Positions 5,445 through 17,598 of a stretch of DNA of 64,000 nucleotides are shown here, in pieces. The translations under genes were made by a program, and so were the position numbers. Each line of letters begins with the position of its first letter. Position 1 is the stretch's first letter. Under the pieces are notes generated by a model. The model was not told the DNA's origin. It made no database searches and saw nothing but the letters and a program-made list of their open reading frames with translations. The stretch comes from Escherichia phage GEP001: the sequence record PV173775. One strand, given 5' to 3'.

Positions 5445-5639
5445 ATGCTGACACACGAACAGTTTGAAAAAATCATTAAATTAGTACGTGATGTTGAAAT
5501 AGATTCATATCAATTAGCAGTTGAGCATTGTGAAGGATACTCATACGATGGTATAGAAGCAGCTAAAAAGGATTTGGATAAATCCAAAGCTAAGTTAGTT
5601 CAATATCTTGAAATGATTAGGTGGAATAATGAAAACTGA
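5445..5639 (+). CDS. hypothetical protein (64 aa)
   Basis: ATG 2 nt after upstream stop. Confidence 0.5.
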   Translation: MLTHEQFEKIIKLVRDVEIDSYQLAVEHCEGYSYDGIEAAKKDLDKSKAKLVQYLEMIRWNNEN

Positions 5640-5802
5640 AAAGCAGATGTTTTTAATGAAGCTAATTGAAGAATACGCTAATGCAGTTTCTGACTATGAG
5701 TGTTCTTCTCGTGAAAGAGGTACAGCTTTCGCAAAGGAAGAAATGAAAATCATGGTTGATGCTCACACAAAGCTTCAGAATTTTATTGAAAACGTCATTT
5801 AA
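5629..5802 (+). CDS. hypothetical small protein (57 aa)
   Basis: ATG overlapping upstream gene end; open to TAA at 5800-5802. Confidence 0.4.
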   Translation: MKTEKQMFLMKLIEEYANAVSDYECSSRERGTAFAKEEMKIMVDAHTKLQNFIENVI

Positions 5803-5804
5803 TG

Positions 5805-5834
5805 GTTTACAAGTTGGCAAGGTTATGGTATAGT
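5805..5834 (+). promoter_or_regulatory. T4-type early promoter
   Basis: GTTTACAAG, 18-nt spacer, TATAGT; partial inverted repeat around -10. Confidence 0.55.
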
Positions 5835-5862
5835 AATCTTGTCAACTGCCAAGGAGAAGAGA

Positions 5863-5967
5863 ATGAAAGTTTTGTTTGTTGTGTATGTGATGATTCAATA
5901 TAATTACCCGATGTTTACTTATAATCTGGTGAACAACATTATTGATATTATTCAAAGGAGTATGTAA
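5863..5967 (+). CDS. possible 34-aa hydrophobic peptide
   Basis: strong AAGGAG SD 6 nt before ATG just downstream of early promoter; very short. Confidence 0.3.
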   Translation: MKVLFVVYVMIQYNYPMFTYNLVNNIIDIIQRSM

Positions 5968-5969
5968 TT

Positions 5970-6527
5970 GTGAGTGAGTCGAAGAGAATCAATATGAAAC
6001 GATTAGTATTAGAAGTTAGTCCGCTTTTTGGTGAATTGGCTATAGAAAAAGTAAATAGCATGTATCGTTTGACGCAAGAAGACGATATGCTGTATTTTAC
6101 GCCTAGTGAAATCATTCATTTAACCCAAATTGAATATCCTTATACTGATAAAATAGTAAGCATCAATGATGAGCACAAAATTCATTTTTATTCTTCATGT
6201 CCAGGATTTAATATTAAAAGTGAGTCAATGTGTTTATCAGTTATTCATTGGGATAGTTTTATAGCTAAGATTAAATATTTTTATTATTCTAATGAAAGAA
6301 AACATAGTTTAAAATGGCTCAAAAATTGCAATGCTATTATTACTAACGATTGCAATCAGAATGATGAAACTCTTTTAAATGTATCAAAATGTTATGAAGA
6401 GGGAGATGTCTTAACTATTCGTCAAATTGATGATTTTCGATCACATATTGTCACATTTACCAAAGACGAAGCTATTGCGCTAAAGACTTATCTTGATTCT
6501 GTCATTCCAACTATGATTTCAAAGTGA
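5970..6527 (+). CDS. hypothetical protein (185 aa), paralog of next gene
   Basis: GTG start with AAAGGAG SD (alternative ATG at 5994); C-terminal motif shared with 6534..7055. Confidence 0.5.
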   Translation: MSESKRINMKRLVLEVSPLFGELAIEKVNSMYRLTQEDDMLYFTPSEIIHLTQIEYPYTDKIVSINDEHKIHFYSSCPGFNIKSESMCLSVIHWDSFIAKIKYFYYSNERKHSLKWLKNCNAIITNDCNQNDETLLNVSKCYEEGDVLTIRQIDDFRSHIVTFTKDEAIALKTYLDSVIPTMISK

Positions 6528-7519: not shown

Positions 7520-8529
7520 TGAAAACAGTAATGAAAAGCTATTTTGGTAGTCATCTTTATGGAACTTCTACTCCAGAATCTGATGTAGATTTTAAAGAAA
7601 TTTTTGTTCCTCCTGCTCGCGATATTCTTATCGGAAATGTTAAAGAGCATATGAGTAAAAACACTAACAACACATCATCTAAAAACACTAAAGATGATAT
7701 TGACCATGAACTATACAGTCTTAAGTATTTCTTTAAATTAGCAGCAGATGGTGAAACTGTAGCATTGGATATGCTTCACACTCCACCTGAACTAGTAGTT
7801 AAATCTGATTTGCCTGATGTATGGAAGTTTATTCAAGACAATCGTTCTCGTTTTTATACGACTAACATGAAATCCTATTTAGGATATGTTCGCAAGCAAG
7901 CTTCTAAATATGGTGTCAAGGGTTCTCGTTTGGCCGCATTGCGTGATGTATTGAAAGTAGTTAATCAAATCCCTGAGCAATGGGTCGATTACCAAGAAGA
8001 CGGTTCCATTAAGCAGCGTCGAACTAAAGTTGAAGATATTAAGCATCGTCTTCCAGAGAACGAATTCTGTGAATGGGTATTCCATAATCATGAGAAAACA
8101 GGCCCACAAACGTTCTACACTGTGTTGGGCCGTAAATATCAGACAACGCTTTCTCTTATCGAGCTTAAGCAGTCACTGAACAAATTAGATGCTGAATACG
8201 GCGAACGCGCTCGTAAGGCTGAAGCGAATGAGGGCATTGACTGGAAAGCTCTAAGTCATGCTTGTCGTGGCGGACTCCAACTATTGGAAATTTACAAAAC
8301 TGGTGACTTAGTCTATCCACTTCAAGACGCTCCATTTATTCTCGACGTGAAGTTGGGTAAACATCCATTTAAAACTGTTCAAGAGCTTTTGGAAGATGTG
8401 GTCGATCAAGTAGAAGCAGCATCTATTGAAGCTTCTAAGAATGGTATGCAACAAAAAGTAGACATGGGTTTCTGGGATGACTTCCTTGAGAGGGTTTATC
8501 TTGAAAACCATCGAAGTTATTATAAATGA
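7516..8529 (+). CDS. Pol-beta-superfamily nucleotidyltransferase-like protein
   Basis: N-terminal GS-x9-DVD motif (FGSHLYGTSTPESDVDF); 337 aa; ATGA overlap with upstream gene. Confidence 0.55.
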   Translation: MMKTVMKSYFGSHLYGTSTPESDVDFKEIFVPPARDILIGNVKEHMSKNTNNTSSKNTKDDIDHELYSLKYFFKLAADGETVALDMLHTPPELVVKSDLPDVWKFIQDNRSRFYTTNMKSYLGYVRKQASKYGVKGSRLAALRDVLKVVNQIPEQWVDYQEDGSIKQRRTKVEDIKHRLPENEFCEWVFHNHEKTGPQTFYTVLGRKYQTTLSLIELKQSLNKLDAEYGERARKAEANEGIDWKALSHACRGGLQLLEIYKTGDLVYPLQDAPFILDVKLGKHPFKTVQELLEDVVDQVEAASIEASKNGMQQKVDMGFWDDFLERVYLENHRSYYK

Positions 8530-8531
8530 TA

Positions 8532-8556
8532 GGGAGCCTTCGGGCTCCCTTTTTTT
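8532..8556 (+). terminator. intrinsic terminator
   Basis: stem GGGAGCC / GGCTCCC with TTCG loop, then T7 run. Confidence 0.8.
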
Positions 8557-8606
8557 ATTTCTATGGTACTATACAACTATCAACTGATACGGATTTGGAG
8601 AATAAA

Positions 8607-9575
8607 ATGAAAACTGTAACTATCAATAAGGGTATCTACTTCGGTAAAGAAATCTCTGGAACTTTTGAGCTCTTAGGCGAATGGTTCCCAGATAATGCTC
8701 CGGTAGATGCACAAGGAGATGGTAAAGTTTTTGTTGAAATTGACGGTAAACGTCGCGGTGTTTGGGTTTACAAATCAGATATTTCATATGATGGTGTAAA
8801 AGTTGAAGAAGTTAAAGAATCATATGAAGATATGAAAACCCGCATTAATAAAAGATTTAATGTTATGGGAATGATGACGAACGGTATTATTAATGGAAAT
8901 ATTCGTTCATTAATTATCTCTGGCGCAGCAGGTATTGGTAAAACGTATTCTTTAGATAAAGCTTTAAATAAAGCAAATGATATTGGATACATTGAATATA
9001 AAAGCATTAATGGTAAAATCTCTGGTATTGGTCTTTATGAGCAGCTTTGGAATAATCGTGAAGAGAATTCTGTCCTTTTGATTGATGATGTGGATGTTTT
9101 CTCTGATATGGACATTCTTAATCTTCTAAAAGCTGCTCTGGACACTGGAGAGACCCGTAAAGTCTGCTGGAGCACTGCGTCTTCTTACTTAGAAGAAAAA
9201 GGCATTGACCGTGAGTTTGAATTTAAAGGAACGATTGTTTTTATCACAAACGTTGACATTGACCGCGAATTAGACCGTGGTACTAAACTTGCTCCACATT
9301 TACAAGCATTAGTGTCCCGCTCGGTTTATTTGGATTTGGGTGTTCACACTAATGAAGAAATTATGGTCAGGGTTGAAGATGTTATTCTTTCAACTGACAT
9401 GATGCAAAAGCGTGGTCTTTCTGATGAAGAAACTTATAAAGCATTATCATGGATGAAAGTTAATGTTAACCGTTTACGCAATGTTTCACTGCGTACTGCT
9501 CTTTATCTTGCTGACTTTATTATGACCGACAAAAACGGTTGGGAAGAAATCGCTGAGGTTACTCTTCTGAAATAA
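8607..9575 (+). CDS. AAA+/P-loop ATPase
   Basis: Walker A GAAGIGKT and Walker B LLIDDVD; ATG after GGAGAATAAA; longer track ORF reads through the terminator/promoter. Confidence 0.65.
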   Translation: MKTVTINKGIYFGKEISGTFELLGEWFPDNAPVDAQGDGKVFVEIDGKRRGVWVYKSDISYDGVKVEEVKESYEDMKTRINKRFNVMGMMTNGIINGNIRSLIISGAAGIGKTYSLDKALNKANDIGYIEYKSINGKISGIGLYEQLWNNREENSVLLIDDVDVFSDMDILNLLKAALDTGETRKVCWSTASSYLEEKGIDREFEFKGTIVFITNVDIDRELDRGTKLAPHLQALVSRSVYLDLGVHTNEEIMVRVEDVILSTDMMQKRGLSDEETYKALSWMKVNVNRLRNVSLRTALYLADFIMTDKNGWEEIAEVTLLK

Positions 9576-10039: not shown

Positions 10040-10567
10040 ATGAATGCTAAAGATATTTTCAACTTGGTAAATTACAACGATGGTAAATTTAAATCTGAAG
10101 CACAAAGCAAGTTCTTTAATGACATCTCAATCGGAGGTGAAATCACAGTTGATGGAGGACAAATTTATAAATCCCGTTGGAATTGGATCGTTATTATCGA
10201 TGAGATTGGTATTGTAGAAATTTACAAGAATACGAATAAAAATCGTACATTACATTGGTCTCGTGATACTAACGAACAGTACAAAAAGGATAAAGCATCT
10301 AAATTATCTCGTGTAACTCAAGAAGATATTGAGTTCATCAAGAAAGATATTTTAATGTATGATAACTTAATTGCTGAAGAGCAAGCTGTTATTGATAAAT
10401 TTGATGAGATTAAAGCTTCTCGTGAAATTCCTGATTTTATGAAAGAATCAGTAAATGAACGATACTCTCTCATTTCAGAGCGTATTGAAACTTACAAAAA
10501 GCAAAGAGCTGAACGCCAAAATACTCTTCGGAAGTTTGAAGAACGGTTAAAGACGGTACTCGCATAA
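10040..10567 (+). CDS. hypothetical protein with C-terminal coiled-coil tail
   Basis: GGAGG SD after early promoter; C-terminal 60 aa charged heptad-like. Confidence 0.55.
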   Translation: MNAKDIFNLVNYNDGKFKSEAQSKFFNDISIGGEITVDGGQIYKSRWNWIVIIDEIGIVEIYKNTNKNRTLHWSRDTNEQYKKDKASKLSRVTQEDIEFIKKDILMYDNLIAEEQAVIDKFDEIKASREIPDFMKESVNERYSLISERIETYKKQRAERQNTLRKFEERLKTVLA

Positions 10568-10593
10568 CCGCTTTATACCAAGGATGGTATAAT
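10567..10593 (+). promoter_or_regulatory. candidate middle promoter (MotA-box-like)
   Basis: GCTTTA 10570-10575 then 12 nt to TATAAT 10588-10593. Confidence 0.4.
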
Positions 10594-10622
10594 GGTTCTA
10601 AGCCCTTTTAATTGAGATTATT

Positions 10623-11030
10623 ATGAAACGGTTGATAATTAAAAGATTGAATTTATTGATATGTTGTTTATGTGTAGTAGTTGCATATGGTTATTACGCA
10701 ATTAATGATTATATGCATTATAAAGATTATGATGTTACTGTAGTTAATACCATTACAGGAACACAAGGAAAAGGGTCTAGTTTATCGTTTATTGCCGTAT
10801 ATGAACTCAAAGACGGTTATAGATTTAGTGAATATATTTCCCCAGAGATGTATTCTTCAATAGAAAAAGGTGATAATATTACTGTAAGTTTACGTCCTTT
10901 CGACGTAAAACAGACATTGTTTGATAATATTGTTTGGTTCTTTGGGATGGTATTAGTTCAATCTGTGTGCGGTGCTTATGTAGTCTGTTCAATCATATTC
11001 TGTGTATTTAGTAAAATTGAAATTGAGTGA
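10623..11030 (+). CDS. membrane protein (135 aa)
   Basis: hydrophobic N- and C-terminal segments; downstream of a TATAAT promoter. Confidence 0.5.
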   Translation: MKRLIIKRLNLLICCLCVVVAYGYYAINDYMHYKDYDVTVVNTITGTQGKGSSLSFIAVYELKDGYRFSEYISPEMYSSIEKGDNITVSLRPFDVKQTLFDNIVWFFGMVLVQSVCGAYVVCSIIFCVFSKIEIE

Positions 11031-11037
11031 GGAAAAT

Positions 11038-11928
11038 ATGTCAGTAGTAATTAATAATGTCAATGCAGTAATTAAATCTTTAGTTAATAAAAAAATGATG
11101 AATGAATGGACTGTACTTCGTCGTGGAGAGCCAGATAATTTTTTTCATAGATTTAACCCAACTTTGGATTTGAATGTTATTGATAAAGATGTTCATGCCG
11201 AAATTTTAGATAAGTTTAAAGTTGATATTGGATTTGGATTAGAAAAACATTTGCAACGAACAAGCGGATCTGGAATGAGTTTATCTAATCGCATTATGAA
11301 AGCCCTTAATAAAATTGGAGCATTGTCTCGTATTAATGCGAGTGAAATCCTTCGTAATTACAATAAAGGATATGACCTTTATGGTCGACTAATGCCAAAA
11401 TTATCATTCGACCAAATGATTGCAGATTTGTGGGAAAATCAAAGACGATTATTAGCATTAGGCGCTCGATTAGCTAAAGGTCTAGATAAACAAATGATTT
11501 TTAAGACCAATAATACAGAAGACCTTAAATGCTTTAAATTTAGTATTCGTGGAGATGATTATTACATCAGAGCTCACTCTACAGATTATGTTAATATGGG
11601 GCATCATCTCTGTTTAGCTTTTGAAGTTTTAAAAGAAGCTGGAACATTAGAATATTCATCTGGTGCAAAATGCCCTATTGGTTCAAGTTGTATTTTAATT
11701 TATCGCCCGAATGAATCCAGTTCAACTACATTGCCTACAAAACCTGTACCAGTTCGTAGTAATGAAAAACATTCTGAACAAATTGATTATTTTAATAAGC
11801 AAATTGAAGAGCTGAATATTTCTATTCAACAGTATGACGATGAAATTTTCAGACTATCTGGATTGAGTAATAAAGCTAAATCTGAGCGTGAAAAATTAAT
11901 TAAAATTGTTGATTTACTTAAATCTTAA
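11038..11928 (+). CDS. hypothetical protein (296 aa) with C-terminal coiled coil
   Basis: TGAGGAAAA SD before ATG 11038; first of four consecutive 300-350 aa ORFs with helical C-terminal tails. Confidence 0.6.
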   Translation: MSVVINNVNAVIKSLVNKKMMNEWTVLRRGEPDNFFHRFNPTLDLNVIDKDVHAEILDKFKVDIGFGLEKHLQRTSGSGMSLSNRIMKALNKIGALSRINASEILRNYNKGYDLYGRLMPKLSFDQMIADLWENQRRLLALGARLAKGLDKQMIFKTNNTEDLKCFKFSIRGDDYYIRAHSTDYVNMGHHLCLAFEVLKEAGTLEYSSGAKCPIGSSCILIYRPNESSSTTLPTKPVPVRSNEKHSEQIDYFNKQIEELNISIQQYDDEIFRLSGLSNKAKSEREKLIKIVDLLKS

Positions 11929-11936
11929 GGAACACT

Positions 11937-12965
11937 ATGAAAACTCGTTCTCAAATTGAAGATATGGTTCGTAATGCCAGTTATACTCGTGATGTTATGA
12001 CATTTTTGTGTGAAAATAATTTAGACCCTGATAAAGTTAATCGTGTTATTCATCACTTTAAGTATACGAATAGCAGTGAATGGGTGCGTAATTTTAGTAA
12101 AGCGGGTTATATTACACAAATGACTGCTCGTGAGCAACTCACCGATTTCTGTAAAACTATTGATTATAAAAATCCTCTATTTGTTCAAGGCGTTGGTCAA
12201 AGTAAGGTCGATTTATCATCTGGATTTTTCAATCCAAATCATTATCGTATTGAATGGAGATTTATTGCTCTGTTCCGTAGACAATTAAAGCAAATTTTAT
12301 CAACTGCGAGTCGATTAAAAGGTTCTGATATTAACTTAAAGAACTTGAAATTTGATGGTTATACTCTTCAGATGGAAGTAAGACCATTAAAAGAAAATAA
12401 CAGAACTGCACGAATTAGCTTTAAACCTAATACAAAAAATTCTCTTTCAATTTGCGAATGCCTTAAATCACAGTTGACAGAAGCATTTAAGTATATGGAT
12501 GTTGTTGCTGCTGTCCAGTCTAAGATTTTACCTCGTTTTGAGCGATTTAAATTAGACACAACAACATATGAACTTGATATGATCGTTTCATTTAAATATG
12601 ATTTTTTGAGAAAGGACGAAGTCACGCAAGAGAAAAAGCAAGAAGTGCAAGATAACTTAAATTTAAATTTATCTAATTACTCATCAAACGATCCTAAATT
12701 TTGGATGTATAGTTCAGGTAATAAGGATGCATGGAAATTCAATAAAGTGAATTTTCTTCCTGTTGAAAATCCGAGTCTTAAACCTGTTGAAAAATGGCAT
12801 GCCGATGCGATTGAGAAGTCTATCAAGGCAGTAGATGATGAACTCGTTAAAGCAACTAATGAAGTGCTAGAAGCTGAAAAGATGCTAGAAAAAGCTCAAG
12901 AAAAAGTCAAAAATCTTACGAAGCAACGTTCTAAACTGAACAATGCATTAAATGCACTAAACTAG
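11937..12965 (+). CDS. hypothetical protein (342 aa) with C-terminal coiled coil
   Basis: AAGGAA SD; long ORF; same architecture as neighbours. Confidence 0.6.
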   Translation: MKTRSQIEDMVRNASYTRDVMTFLCENNLDPDKVNRVIHHFKYTNSSEWVRNFSKAGYITQMTAREQLTDFCKTIDYKNPLFVQGVGQSKVDLSSGFFNPNHYRIEWRFIALFRRQLKQILSTASRLKGSDINLKNLKFDGYTLQMEVRPLKENNRTARISFKPNTKNSLSICECLKSQLTEAFKYMDVVAAVQSKILPRFERFKLDTTTYELDMIVSFKYDFLRKDEVTQEKKQEVQDNLNLNLSNYSSNDPKFWMYSSGNKDAWKFNKVNFLPVENPSLKPVEKWHADAIEKSIKAVDDELVKATNEVLEAEKMLEKAQEKVKNLTKQRSKLNNALNALN

Positions 12966-12994
12966 TTTACTTTGCCACAAGGATGTGGTATAAT
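12965..12994 (+). promoter_or_regulatory. T4-type early promoter
   Basis: GTTTACTTTGCCACAAGGATGTGGTATAAT; near-identical to 59740-59769. Confidence 0.6.
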
Positions 12995-13022
12995 GTTCTT
13001 ACTTTCTACTGAGGAGATTAAT

Positions 13023-14024
13023 ATGACTCGTAACGAATATATCAAATCATTCAATAGCGTTATTGATGATAAAGTTAAACCTATGTCTAGTCAGAATAGT
13101 GTTCTTTCTATTATCAATCAATGGCTCAATAATATTGATGTAAGCATTGTTTCTTCCAGCAGATTTATTCACGAAGTTCGTGAAATTTCTAGTCGTACAG
13201 ATAAAGATGACATTAAGAAAACCTTTAAAGGGTCTCGTCTTCTTTCATACTTAGTCAACAGAGATATTCTTGGTAAATTTGGGAAAGAAATTAAACGAAC
13301 TAAAGATGTAGTAGGATATAATTGGTTCGGTGATGTTAATTCTTATCATCTTAATAATAAAGAAGACCCTGAGAATATTTTTACTCGTCGTTGGATTAGT
13401 AATTTCAGGCTTTTCAAAGGACAGATTCTAAAATCAGCTTCTAAATTATGTTATGGCGATTATCGTCAAATTCATCCTTTGGCTTCTGATATGATTATCG
13501 TAAAAGAATATGAGCTTGATAAAAATAAAGTAGCTATTTTTGTGAATTATGGATTTTTTACACCAAACGCTAACCAAAAGAATATTAATAAATTTTTCTC
13601 AATTGCTAGCACTATAACTTATCAATTAGAGGCGGCTTTGGGCTGTATGGAAACCGTAAAAAGTATTCATACATATCCTTTCAAAAATATGTGTGGTTGG
13701 GAAGGATATAAAATTATAATTAGCCTTCGTGAAGTGAAACGTACGTACTCACCGACTGATAAAGAAATTTACCAACAAAAATGTGATGAAATTGTGAATA
13801 CTCCTAAAGAAGAAACTACCCTTGAAGAACTAATGGAATGTCTTGACGATTCGCCTGAACCGATAGAAATTCGTCCAGAAGTTATTGCACTAGAAAAAGC
13901 TTATAAAGAAGTTCTAGAAATTTCTAATAAAGCGCAGAAAGAATATGAGAAGGCTAAAAGGATTTGGGAAGAATCTGTTAATCGCCTTGATCGTTTGGAA
14001 CAAGCTTTACAGTTAATTAAGTAA
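13023..14024 (+). CDS. hypothetical protein (333 aa) with C-terminal coiled coil
   Basis: GAGGAG SD before ATG 13023 downstream of early promoter; track ORF start lies inside the promoter. Confidence 0.6.
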   Translation: MTRNEYIKSFNSVIDDKVKPMSSQNSVLSIINQWLNNIDVSIVSSSRFIHEVREISSRTDKDDIKKTFKGSRLLSYLVNRDILGKFGKEIKRTKDVVGYNWFGDVNSYHLNNKEDPENIFTRRWISNFRLFKGQILKSASKLCYGDYRQIHPLASDMIIVKEYELDKNKVAIFVNYGFFTPNANQKNINKFFSIASTITYQLEAALGCMETVKSIHTYPFKNMCGWEGYKIIISLREVKRTYSPTDKEIYQQKCDEIVNTPKEETTLEELMECLDDSPEPIEIRPEVIALEKAYKEVLEISNKAQKEYEKAKRIWEESVNRLDRLEQALQLIK

Positions 14025-14076
14025 TTTAAAGCCAAGGATGGCTCGGAGTATAAATCATTAACCAAGTGAGAAGAAC

Positions 14077-15006
14077 ATGAAAACTCGTAAACATTATATT
14101 GATTATTTTGACAGTCTTATTACTAAACATCGTAATTATCAGATCGGGCACAGAACAGTAATCAATAATATTCTTCGTGATTTCCTTCAATATGTTGGCC
14201 AGGAAAATCATATCTGTAAAGATACTCAAAACGCTTATTCTCATTCGTTAGGCAATTTGCTTGAATGGTTTAAACGTTCTCGTATGTTATCTTCTACTGT
14301 AGCTCGTGATAACATTGAAAACTTTATGAAGCCGAGCTTCATTAAATCTGCGACATCTATAACCGATTTAGTTGAATTTACTATTGTTAACGATGTTAAA
14401 AAGACCCATTTGGCTGATTGGTTATCTACCATTCCTGAAACTAAATTTGCTGATAAATTCGCTTGTCAATTCAATGACCAAGTGAATATGCTTTTTAAGC
14501 ATGCTCGTAAACTATTTACCGCAGGCGATGACCGTACAAATACAGTTCATGTTAAGGACTGGGTTATTGCTGATGAAGTAACACACAAGCCAGGTGGTTC
14601 ATCAGTATTAATTAATATCCAGGTTCCTTATTATTACTCACGTAATCTCGGCACCATGACAGCTAGAGAAATTAATAAGCACAACAAAACTATTCGTTCG
14701 TTGTCTTATAAACTCCGCATGATGTTAAAAATCATGGACGTAGTGGAAATGTATGATGAAACCGAAGATAATGGTTCAATGTTATACAGTTCACGTATTC
14801 TAATTAAACTGAAGAACCCTAATACATATAAGCCAGTTGTAAAAGAACCTAAAGTAGAAAAGGTTGATAACCTGAGCGAAGAACGCGAATATCTCAATGC
14901 TCGTTTGATTGAAGTTGAAGCCCAGATTGCCGAACACACCAAACTGTTAAAAGCTCTTAATGCAAAAGCAAATGGTTTACGCAATGCTATTGAGGTATTG
15001 AAATGA
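14077..15006 (+). CDS. hypothetical protein (309 aa) with C-terminal coiled coil
   Basis: long ORF; C-terminal ~50 aa heptad-like. Confidence 0.6.
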   Translation: MKTRKHYIDYFDSLITKHRNYQIGHRTVINNILRDFLQYVGQENHICKDTQNAYSHSLGNLLEWFKRSRMLSSTVARDNIENFMKPSFIKSATSITDLVEFTIVNDVKKTHLADWLSTIPETKFADKFACQFNDQVNMLFKHARKLFTAGDDRTNTVHVKDWVIADEVTHKPGGSSVLINIQVPYYYSRNLGTMTAREINKHNKTIRSLSYKLRMMLKIMDVVEMYDETEDNGSMLYSSRILIKLKNPNTYKPVVKEPKVEKVDNLSEEREYLNARLIEVEAQIAEHTKLLKALNAKANGLRNAIEVLK

Positions 15007-15550: not shown

Positions 15551-15814
15551 ATGTTTAAAGTATATGGTTATGATAGCAACATCCACAAATGTGTGTATTG
15601 CGATAATGCAAAACGTCTTTTGGCTATGAAGAAACAGCCGTTTGAATTTATCAACATTATGCCGGAAAAAGGTGTTTTTGATGATGAGAAAATTGCTGAG
15701 CTTCTGACTAAACTAGGTCGTGATACTCAAATTGGCTTGACGATGCCTCAGGTATTTGCTCCTGATGGAAGCCATATTGGTGGATTCGATCAATTGCGGG
15801 AATACTTTAAATGA
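15551..15814 (+). CDS. nrdC: glutaredoxin/thioredoxin NrdC
   Basis: 87 aa; CVYC active site; matches T4 NrdC as recalled. Confidence 0.9.
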   Translation: MFKVYGYDSNIHKCVYCDNAKRLLAMKKQPFEFINIMPEKGVFDDEKIAELLTKLGRDTQIGLTMPQVFAPDGSHIGGFDQLREYFK

Positions 15815-16026
15815 TGCTTGAAGGAACTGATTATATCCATGACTACCGCGGAAGCGCGGTATATGTGGGTGATGAGGTTGCAGTTTATTATGGGTATGGA
15901 ACTTTGATGACAGCAAAGGTTATTCAAATTAAAAATGGCCGCGCTAAACTCGAAGTTTATTATTCTAATGGTGAAAAGTCTATTTCTAAATGGAAATATG
16001 GCGATTGTATGGTCAAACTGGGGTAA
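15811..16026 (+). CDS. hypothetical protein (71 aa)
   Basis: ATGATG start overlapping nrdC stop. Confidence 0.5.
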   Translation: MMLEGTDYIHDYRGSAVYVGDEVAVYYGYGTLMTAKVIQIKNGRAKLEVYYSNGEKSISKWKYGDCMVKLG

Positions 16027-16028
16027 AT

Positions 16029-16337
16029 ATGATTTACGATGTTGATGCAGTTCTGAGTGAAATCATCGAAGACCATGATGCATTTTCAGAAAATTATGAT
16101 TTCGATTTTTCGGATTATCTTAAACCTATCGAAATAGAAGACTGGGTGCAAGACGGTAAATGTCAATATCGTCAGTGTGTTTATTTTAGTCCAAAACATA
16201 ATGTACATGTTTCCGTAAATGAATGCCGTTCAGGTTCTTATCATTCTGACTGGTATTATGTAGTTCCGACTGTTGAACTAGTCGAGCCCCGTGAACGTGT
16301 AGTAACTCAGACAATACGAGAATGGATTACGCTATAA
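16029..16337 (+). CDS. hypothetical acidic protein (102 aa)
   Basis: ATG 16029 chosen inside track ORF 15990..16337. Confidence 0.5.
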   Translation: MIYDVDAVLSEIIEDHDAFSENYDFDFSDYLKPIEIEDWVQDGKCQYRQCVYFSPKHNVHVSVNECRSGSYHSDWYYVVPTVELVEPRERVVTQTIREWITL

Positions 16338-16460
16338 AACCCTGGTGGGCGGCTAGATGGGAAACAGTAGAGCCAGAGCCGGAAGAACCGGTTTACACTG
16401 ATGAAGAAACAGTATATAATGAACCAACAATAAATGACTTAATTGATATGGAGATGGGAC

Positions 16461-16907
16461 ATGATTACAGTAGATAAGTGGTTTAGAATTAATCGTGCTG
16501 ATAAGGGGCTGTGTAATTACTGGCCTGAACTTAGTGCAGGTACTGTCTTTAAAGTTCGTGAACTTGCAAAAGAATGCGAAGATGACATAGAACCTGATAC
16601 TGGAATTATTGAAATTGAACTTTCTGACGGAAAGGTTATTAATATCTACGATAAGCCAATTACGTATTGGTGCTTGTGGAATACTGAATCAGTAGAAAAT
16701 GGCGAAATTGAAGAAGTTGTAGAACGAGTTGATCAAGCTATTCATAAACCTAAAGCCGCTTTTCAAGGTGAACGCATTTCATATGCATTAGCTAAATTAG
16801 CTGCACAAGAAAATAACGATGGTTATGAAGGAAATTTGATGCAAGCTGCGGCAGAATATATTGAATGGCTTGAAACTCAAATTTCTTTTTCTGACCGAGC
16901 GTTTTAA
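16461..16907 (+). CDS. hypothetical protein (148 aa)
   Basis: GGAG SD 7 nt before ATG 16461; track ORF starts at TTG 16443. Confidence 0.5.
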   Translation: MITVDKWFRINRADKGLCNYWPELSAGTVFKVRELAKECEDDIEPDTGIIEIELSDGKVINIYDKPITYWCLWNTESVENGEIEEVVERVDQAIHKPKAAFQGERISYALAKLAAQENNDGYEGNLMQAAAEYIEWLETQISFSDRAF

Positions 16908-17124: not shown

Positions 17125-17598
17125 ATGTTATTGACTGGCAAATTATACAAAGAAGAAAAACAAAAATTTTATAATGCACAAAACGGTAAATGCTTAATTT
17201 GCCAACGAGAACTAAATCCTGATGTTCAAGCTAATCACCTCGACCATGACCATGAATTAAATGGACCAAAAGCAGGAAAGGTACGTGGATTGCTTTGTAA
17301 TCTCTGCAATGCTGCAGAAGGTCAAATGAAACATAAATTTAATCGTTCTGGTTTAAAGGGACAAGGTGTTGATTATCTTGAATGGTTAGAAAATTTACTT
17401 ACTTATTTAAAATCCGATTACACCCAAAATAATATTCACCCTAACTTTGTTGGAGATAAATCAAAGGAATTTTCTCGTTTGGGAAAAGAGGAAATGATGG
17501 CTGAGATGCTTCAAAGAGGATTTGAATATAATGAATCTGACACCAAAACACAATTAATAGCTTCATTTAAGAAGCAGCTTAGAAAGAGTTTAAAATGA
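17125..17598 (+). CDS. 49: endonuclease VII (Holliday junction resolvase)
   Basis: 157 aa; Cys-rich zinc site (CLIC...CNLCN) and H-N-H-like core; matches T4 gp49. Confidence 0.9.
   Translation: MLLTGKLYKEEKQKFYNAQNGKCLICQRELNPDVQANHLDHDHELNGPKAGKVRGLLCNLCNAAEGQMKHKFNRSGLKGQGVDYLEWLENLLTYLKSDYTQNNIHPNFVGDKSKEFSRLGKEEMMAEMLQRGFEYNESDTKTQLIASFKKQLRKSLK

Follow-up and report, generated by a model that had tools for sequence, protein, structure and literature searches.

A stretch of 64,000 nucleotides (nt) from Escherichia phage GEP001 (sequence record PV173775), called the window below, was analysed around five open reading frames (ORFs) at positions 10040-15006. The source of the window is a Tequatrovirus, that is, a T4-like phage. 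Many Tequatrovirus genomes match the 4967-bp region with 96-98% identity, and in some of them the ORFs are annotated as nrdC.3-nrdC.8. The five ORFs are nrdC.8, nrdC.6, nrdC.5, nrdC.4, and nrdC.3, in 5' to 3' order and all on the + strand, and the run from nrdC.8 to nrdC.3 belongs to the plastic accessory region that separates nrdC from mobD. The original prediction had described these ORFs as varied N-terminal domains that share a C-terminal oligomerisation or targeting module, and had regarded them as effectors or adaptors built by domain shuffling. It had located all five ORFs correctly, and the peptides it quoted are the C-termini of ORFs 11937..12965 and 14077..15006. The genes of the run are as follows (lengths in amino acids, aa):

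nrdC.8: 10040..10567, + strand, 175 aa; phrog_2274 (E 1e-110); 98.3% identical to T4 NrdC.8
nrdC.7: 10623..11030, + strand, 135 aa; hydrophobic predicted membrane protein, phrog_2547; without a coiled-coil tail
nrdC.6: 11038..11928, + strand, 296 aa; phrog_2257; 93% identical to T4 NrdC.6
nrdC.5: 11937..12965, + strand, 342 aa; 330 of 340 positions (97%) identical to T4 NrdC.5
nrdC.4: 13023..14024, + strand, 333 aa; phrog_1435; 90% identical to T4 NrdC.4
nrdC.3: 14077..15006, + strand, 309 aa; phrog_1435; only 61% identical to T4 NrdC.3

nrdC.5 belongs to Pfam DUF7235 (PF23882), whose profile it matches over all 307 positions with E 9.5e-128 and 426 bits, where the gathering cut-off is 30. Precomputed Pfam assignments place PF26899 on nrdC.6 homologs and PF26897 on nrdC.4 homologs. 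Pfam, NCBIfam, and PHROGs gave no functional annotation for the five ORFs. An upstream ATG at 12993 is an alternative start of nrdC.4 and would give 343 aa. nrdC.7 sits within the run, between nrdC.8 and nrdC.6, and is not a member of the family described below. It is annotated as a predicted membrane protein in the T4 record (NC_000866.4), and the nrdC.7-like gene of Mosigvirus PhAPEC2 is placed elsewhere, between nrdC.2 and nrdC.

Each of the five ORFs ends in a charged heptad-like segment, as had been claimed, and these segments are helical and free of proline. The tails are:

nrdC.8 heptad tail: approximately residues 136-175, + strand; follows a small N-terminal domain, C-terminal half of the protein helical
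nrdC.6 tail: 11776..11925, + strand; approximately residues 247-296, SEQIDYFNKQIEELNISIQQYDDEIFRLSGLSNKAKSEREKLIKIVDLLKS; one continuous heptad register, maximum 16.0
nrdC.5 tail helix: 12783..12959, + strand; residues 283-341; heptad register unbroken, score 18.5
nrdC.4 tail helix: 13875..14018, + strand; residues 285-332; helix in the AlphaFold2 model
nrdC.3 tail: 14863..15003, + strand; approximately residues 263-309; continuous heptad register, score of approximately 17

The tails were scored with a home-made heptad scorer (neither COILS nor Marcoil), which uses a frame of 28 residues, favours hydrophobic residues at positions a and d and charged residues at e and g, and penalises Pro and Gly. 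The ranking set was the 108 non-overlapping ORFs of the window, whose C-terminal scores had a median of 4.8 and a 90th percentile of 11.0. The best four C-terminal scores were those of nrdC.5 (18.5), nrdC.8 (16.8), nrdC.3 (16.6), and nrdC.4 (15.3), and nrdC.6 ranked 11th of 108 at its extreme C-terminus, with its maximum of 16.0 near the C-terminus. The last 45 residues of the five ORFs were 31-42% charged and contained 0-1 Pro/Gly. The order of the heptads was clear for nrdC.5, nrdC.8, and nrdC.3, whose scores were reached by 1, 2, and 5 of 1000 shuffles, respectively. AlphaFold2 predicted the nrdC.4 tail as a single uninterrupted helix at 285-332 (48 residues; predicted local distance difference test, pLDDT, of approximately 74-82) after a disordered linker at 275-284, and the nrdC.5 tail as a single helix at 283-341 (59 residues, pLDDT 71-89). 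Long uninterrupted helices with hydrophobic a/d periodicity are thus indicated by the AlphaFold2 helices, the registers, and the home-made scorer. The end pattern L-x-x-[A/I/V]-[L/I/V]-x-x-L-K is common to all tails.

An AT-rich (adenine- and thymine-rich) genome encodes proteins rich in K, E, N, and L, and the tails could be a compositional by-product of this. The GC (guanine plus cytosine) content of the region is 32%, several small ORFs elsewhere in the window score 12-15, and the tails of nrdC.4 and nrdC.6 are not clearly above composition-matched shuffles. However, five of the six genes in this row hold ranks 1-4 and 11 of 108, three tails score above at least 99.5% of their shuffles, and AlphaFold2 predicts single long helices. 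The tails also persist, mostly more conserved than the heads, across genera whose heads are only 31-53% identical. We consider a purely compositional origin extremely improbable. The ranking, the shuffles, and the helices together indicate that the tails are real and not a chance effect of composition. From their sequence they look like an oligomerisation element.

The dissimilarity of the N-terminal domains, on which the original prediction was built, holds by eye only. nrdC.3, nrdC.4, nrdC.5, and nrdC.6 are ancient tandem duplicates of one gene, and their superfamily is covered by PF26897, PF26899, and PF23882 and by phrog_1435, phrog_2257, and phrog_2351. nrdC.3 and nrdC.4 share one PHROG (phrog_1435) and are 24% identical over 270 aa by BLASTP (E 3e-8). 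The hidden Markov model (HMM) of the nrdC.4 family found nrdC.3 with E 1e-17, and hhalign aligned the two with a P of approximately 1e-14. Pairwise BLAST and single-family HMMs gave no link of nrdC.5 or nrdC.6 to the other paralogs. Their signal emerged only with broader profiles, to which Mosigvirus, Gaprivervirus, and Dhakavirus orthologs had been added for hhalign, and was checked against 13 reversed-profile controls, which gave P values of 0.058-0.83. With these profiles, nrdC.3 and nrdC.5 aligned with P 9.2e-6 over 235 columns (57-309 against 42-342), colinearly and with the tail included to the C-terminus, and nrdC.4 and nrdC.5 aligned with P 6.8e-5 over 131 columns. The pairwise profile P values of nrdC.6 were only 0.01-0.1, and its sequence evidence taken by itself is weak. 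A merged nrdC.3/4/5 profile matched the nrdC.6 profile with P 5.5e-4 (reversed control 0.15). The window nrdC.6 is 49% identical to NrdC.6 of phage JS10 (P0203).

The structural comparison also includes nrdC.6. The AlphaFold2 model of nrdC.4 had a mean pLDDT of 82.8, with an alpha/beta head at 1-240 and helices at 246-259 and 267-275. In Foldseek it matched the predicted structure of JS10 NrdC.6 (C4MZI0) with E 4.6e-6 and prob 1.0 over 339 columns (template modelling, TM, scores of 0.43/0.50), and it matched a 308-aa nrdC.3-like predicted structure over the full length with E 1.6e-8. Further full-length matches (E 1e-4 to 1e-8) were proteins of 300-370 aa in other T4-like phages, whose hosts are Acinetobacter, Klebsiella, Enterobacter, Serratia, Erwinia, Pectobacterium, and Yersinia. 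The matches in the Acinetobacter phage Acj61 have two consecutive UniProt accessions and are therefore probably neighbouring genes. A protein of Aeromonas phage Aeh1 matched the nrdC.4 model only weakly (E 1.1e-2, prob 0.80). The Klebsiella phage Roth17 has a single family member (323 aa), which is the best match of the nrdC.4 HMM and also has a high-scoring heptad tail. A HMMER search of 1.84 billion proteins with the nrdC.4/nrdC.3 profile returned only 9 representative clusters and did not reach the distant relatives, so the wider family is visible only by structure.

The layout shared by the four paralogs is an alpha/beta head of approximately 240-280 aa, a short flexible linker rich in Pro and charged residues, and one amphipathic helix, 45-60 aa long, at the C-terminus; in nrdC.6 this appears as head, Pro-rich linker, and C-terminal helix. 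Since head and tail of nrdC.3 and nrdC.5 align colinearly, head and tail were duplicated as one unit, and the head-linker-helix design was inherited through whole-gene tandem duplication rather than shuffling. The profile comparison of the N-terminal domains linked the heads of nrdC.3-nrdC.6 and did not link nrdC.8, which showed no profile similarity to these heads (hhalign P values of 0.049 or more with every family profile). The tail of nrdC.8 by itself aligned marginally with the family profiles (P 0.049 against 0.58 in the control). Judged by its sequence, nrdC.8 is a separate, smaller, unrelated family that also ends in a helical heptad segment.

The shuffling of one common C-terminal oligomerisation or targeting module onto unrelated N-terminal domains is very unlikely as an explanation of this arrangement. 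Most heads do look unrelated by eye and by pairwise BLAST, all tails carry the similar end pattern, and tail-against-tail profiles beat reversed controls in 9 of 10 pairs. But the registers of these tail alignments were inconsistent and their P values ranged from 4e-4 to 0.4, so the comparison of tails with tails is by itself insufficient to claim that the tails are homologous. For nrdC.3-nrdC.6 shuffling is contradicted by the homologous heads and by the colinear alignment of nrdC.3 and nrdC.5, and the tails of nrdC.3 and nrdC.4 are as diverged as their heads (approximately 21% against 26% identity). The one natural in-frame fusion of an nrdC.6 head to an nrdC.4 tail, in phage Manna (L001, 5215-6252), might be taken in favour of shuffling. 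Its junction lies at a 9-10 nt microhomology, TGATGAAATT, and looks like the product of a deletion; it was found in 1 of 499 records, and the chimera was rejected as evidence for shuffling. Other rearrangements were a register-shifted nrdC.5/nrdC.3 fusion in a metagenomic protein (P0056) and, in phage ACG-C40 (L012, 4305-4716), a deletion that runs from the 5' portion of nrdC.5 into the 3' portion of nrdC.3 and left gene remnants only. Like the Manna junction, these look like deletion products and not designed module swaps. The claim of a shared C-terminal module can thus be kept in part: the tail is a common architectural feature of oligomerisation-like character. Because the tails of different paralogs are only approximately 21% identical, there is no evidence of one exchangeable module, and the claim of domain shuffling falls.

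The natural rearrangements show plasticity of the array and not systematic module exchange. Tequatrovirus has four paralogs, and Mosigvirus, Dhakavirus, and Gaprivervirus have three each. The Mosigvirus array consists of nrdC.6, an nrdC.5-like gene, and an nrdC.3-like gene; the arrays of Dhakavirus and Gaprivervirus consist of nrdC.6, an nrdC.5-like gene, and nrdC.4. In phage Sf25 (P0121), nrdC.6 contains an internal duplication of 82 aa. nrdC.3 occurs in discrete allele classes: 357 records were at least 90% identical to the window, 197 records fell in the 60-80% band (the sampled Mosigvirus-type records at 74-78%), and 95 records were below 60%, the T4 type, which is also Tequatrovirus, being approximately 60% identical. 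The window nrdC.3 is nearer to that of Mosigvirus PhAPEC2 (76%) than to that of T4 (61%), which suggests lateral exchange at the locus. Such plasticity in copy number, allele classes, deletions, and fusions is typical of arms-race loci.

The tail was better conserved than the head in most ortholog comparisons, although not universally. Across genera, the tails of nrdC.4 orthologs were 56-67% identical and their heads 39-53%; for nrdC.6 the values were 56-69% and 31-52%. In nrdC.8 orthologs the tail was 76-78% identical and the head 62-63%, and between the nrdC.3 alleles of the window and T4 the tail was 77% and the head 58% identical. Instead of associating with itself, a conserved tail might serve for docking, either to a single partner shared by all these proteins, such as a host protein, a scaffold of the phage, or a factor for packaging or localisation, or to the other products of the array in a hetero-oligomeric complex. 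The conservation of the tails in most comparisons, the C-terminal motif common to all, their flexible tethering, and the adjacent, co-oriented genes agree with docking. However, each paralog has its own distinct tail, which agrees less well with one binding site common to all than with self-pairing specific to each paralog; the makeup of the array varies by genus and single-copy phages such as Roth17 exist; and plasmid-expressed nrdC.5 by itself restores infection. We therefore regard docking as unlikely, and self-association of the tails is preferred below.

The nrdC.6 tail of the T4 reference differs from that of the window. This reference (NC_000866.4; locus 5567-6394) annotates NrdC.6 as 275 aa. 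Near window position ~11816, T4 has a 1-nt deletion (GAGCTGATATTT in T4 and GAGCTGAATATTT in the window) which frameshifts the nrdC.6 tail away, and the tail is still readable in another frame. In the T4 annotation used by the authors of HIDEN-SEQ, nrdC.6 has 891 nt (296 aa). The frameshift comes from either an error in sequencing or a difference between strains.

The literature gives two members of the run an anti-defence function, and the original prediction of effector-like accessory proteins holds in this sense for two of the five genes. The nrdC.5 gene of T4 counteracts Dsr1, a SIR2-type defence, and when supplied in trans from a plasmid it restores the infection of dsr1-carrying cells by the deletion mutant (Srikant, Guegler and Laub, eLife 2022, PMC9391042). 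Among these genes, the literature describes only nrdC.5 as expressed early. According to a 2025 preprint, HIDEN-SEQ identified bas37_0203 of phage Bas37 as an inhibitor of Druantia type III (bioRxiv 10.1101/2025.11.20.689424). The gene table of this preprint lists bas37_0203 with 528 nt, exactly at the position of nrdC.8, and the published deletion primers match within nrdC.8 at 10529-10552 (0 mismatches) and 10145-10167 (1 mismatch). Primer matches, length, and position together identify nrdC.8 as the bas37_0203 ortholog. The target defences are thus experimentally reported for nrdC.5 (Dsr1, in T4) and for the ortholog of nrdC.8 (Druantia III, in Bas37). The preprint data also describe nrdC.3-nrdC.8 as all non-essential in T4 (10.1101/2025.11.20.689424). 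Neighbouring genes are anti-defence genes as well: nrdC.1 acts against Septu and 49.2 against OLD.

Many GenBank records label these ORFs as 'thioredoxin', and such labels ('thioredoxin', 'ribonucleotide reductase', 'Mur ligase domain'), together with the proximity of nrdC and nrdD, could be taken to mean a role in nucleotide or redox metabolism. But Pfam, NCBIfam, and a PDB sequence search detected no thioredoxin, ribonucleotide reductase, or Mur-ligase domain, none of the five ORFs matched a thioredoxin family in Pfam or NCBIfam, and two members have demonstrated anti-defence activity. The true NrdC is a separate ORF at 15551..15814. We give a metabolic role next to no probability, and the thioredoxin and similar labels look like they were carried over from the nrdC.x gene names. 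Deposited genomes also label nrdC.3-nrdC.8 as 'Mur ligase domain-containing' or 'spanin', and no such domain is detectable.

This analysis established the identity of the genes, their paralogy, the helical character of the tails, and the pattern of conservation. On this basis we believe that the run is probably a counter-defence array, in which heads bind targets, tails oligomerise, and the paralogs come from tandem duplication. The genes nrdC.8-nrdC.3, all five of them non-essential, would act as counter-defence factors. Each head would recognise a different host immunity protein, presumably by direct binding. The flexibly tethered C-terminal helix may self-associate as a coiled coil and thus form a multivalent inhibitor. 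The arms race would drive fast divergence of the heads, with the tail changing less in most ortholog comparisons, and duplication followed by head divergence would give rise to new specificities.

Several observations weigh against this array. nrdC.5 of the window and of T4 agree better in the head (98% identity) than in the tail (88%), and the frameshift by which nrdC.6 loses its tail in the T4 reference, if not a sequencing error, would mean that the tail can be dispensed with. The heptad order is weak for nrdC.4 and nrdC.6, whose scores were reached by 80 and 133 of 1000 shuffles; the heptad scorer is ad hoc, and oligomerisation by the tails is a prediction. AlphaFold2 modelled nrdC.5 from an alignment of 9 sequences with a pLDDT of 43.5, which makes the head unusable for a fold search, so the membership of nrdC.5 in the family follows from the profile-profile P of approximately 1e-5 and not from structure. 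nrdC.3, nrdC.4, and nrdC.6 had no fitness effect in the HIDEN-SEQ comparison, as far as the accessible part of the preprint reports. Their anti-defence roles are assumed by kinship, and experiments tie them to no defence system. The cited papers give no mechanism for the action of nrdC.5 or nrdC.8.

A wider generalisation can be offered tentatively. It is possible, though we lean against it at present, that the nrdC.3-nrdC.6 family comprises modular immune antagonists widespread in T4-like Straboviridae phages, in which a diversifying head blocks a sensor or effector and a conserved coiled coil multimerises to match multimeric defence proteins such as Dsr1. If this were true, tandem duplication would equip each phage with three or four specificities, and nrdC.3, nrdC.4, and nrdC.6 would inhibit further host defence systems. 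Since NrdC.5 is one of four tandem paralogs, these three genes can be named as concrete candidates for anti-defence proteins with new specificities. The genes and two of the functions were already known; new is the view of three uncharacterised genes as NrdC.5-related candidate anti-defence proteins. The paralogy, the shared head-linker-helix design, its spread in T4-like phages, and the conservation of tail over head are unmentioned in the searched literature. The result is a refinement of a known kind of locus and not a surprising new principle. The tail gains a testable role, and the widespread 'thioredoxin' annotation of nrdC.3-nrdC.8 is corrected.

The flanks of the run contain nrdC.11 (a nucleotidyltransferase) and nrdC.10 (an ATPase) upstream, and the NrdC glutaredoxin and endonuclease VII (17125..17598) downstream; NrdD is also encoded in the flanks. 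A scan of the region showed no excess of promoters or terminators over shuffles, and no operon structure is therefore claimed. At 8531-8550, at the nrdC.11/nrdC.10 junction and just inside the longest ORF call of nrdC.10 (8526..9575, 349 aa), there is a strong terminator-like hairpin, whose 8 bp stem contains 6 GC pairs and precedes a T-run. Since T4 nrdC.10 has 325 aa, the true start of nrdC.10 is probably downstream of this hairpin. The window encodes three ORFs (71, 115, and 51 aa; 15811-16477) between nrdC and a pin-like ORF, where T4 carries 49.3 (102 aa), 49.2 (106 aa, reported to inhibit OLD), and 49.1. Judged by ORF position and size, the positions of 49.3 and 49.2 seem to hold different genes in the window.

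Heptad tails were also seen in Aeromonas phage 50AhydR13PP (L010, 11153-11824 and 11846-12697), where two adjacent ORFs had C-terminal heptad scores of 20.3 and 19.6. These ORFs have no detectable sequence similarity to nrdC.3-nrdC.6. They are located in the neighbourhood that corresponds to the nrdC array; a gene annotated as nicotinamide phosphoribosyltransferase follows immediately downstream, and one annotated as nicotinamide mononucleotide (NMN) adenylyltransferase/NUDIX hydrolase is close by. Going by the annotation, these neighbours are possibly genes that restore nicotinamide adenine dinucleotide (NAD+).

A short module shared by varied anti-defence proteins has a precedent in the N-terminal cleavable targeting peptide. 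The nrdC proteins differ from those proteins, since their tails are long C-terminal helices and nothing here suggests packaging. The closest known system is T4 NrdC.5. ORF 11937..12965 is the same protein (97% identity, full-length DUF7235), and nrdC.3, nrdC.4, and nrdC.6 are its distant paralogs, approximately 20-26% identical or less, with the same head-linker-helix layout. The publication on T4 NrdC.5 describes neither paralogy, architecture, nor mechanism (PMC9391042). For Bas37_0203, nrdC.8 is the ortholog with the same 528-nt length and position; this family is distinct from nrdC.3-nrdC.6, and the activity was demonstrated for the Bas37 protein and not for that of the window phage. The preprint reports neither known domains nor a mechanism (10.1101/2025.11.20.689424). 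DSAD1 is a functional analogue. According to two reports, this phage protein neutralises the multimeric SIR2 NADase DSR2 by binding (PMC10981675, PMC11087589), and by analogy NrdC.5 may act similarly on Dsr1. Through its tetratricopeptide repeat (TPR) sensor, Dsr1 reportedly recognises major capsid proteins (PMC12803255). The anti-defence islands of T-even phages (the dmd-tifA-adfA 'anti-TA island', anti-OLD 49.2, and anti-Septu nrdC.1) are loci of the same kind. They likewise consist of clustered genes that are non-essential, that each neutralise one host defence, and that tend to be amplified or deleted. The nrdC.8-nrdC.3 run differs from them in one respect, unremarked in the searched literature: here four adjacent genes are paralogs of one another.

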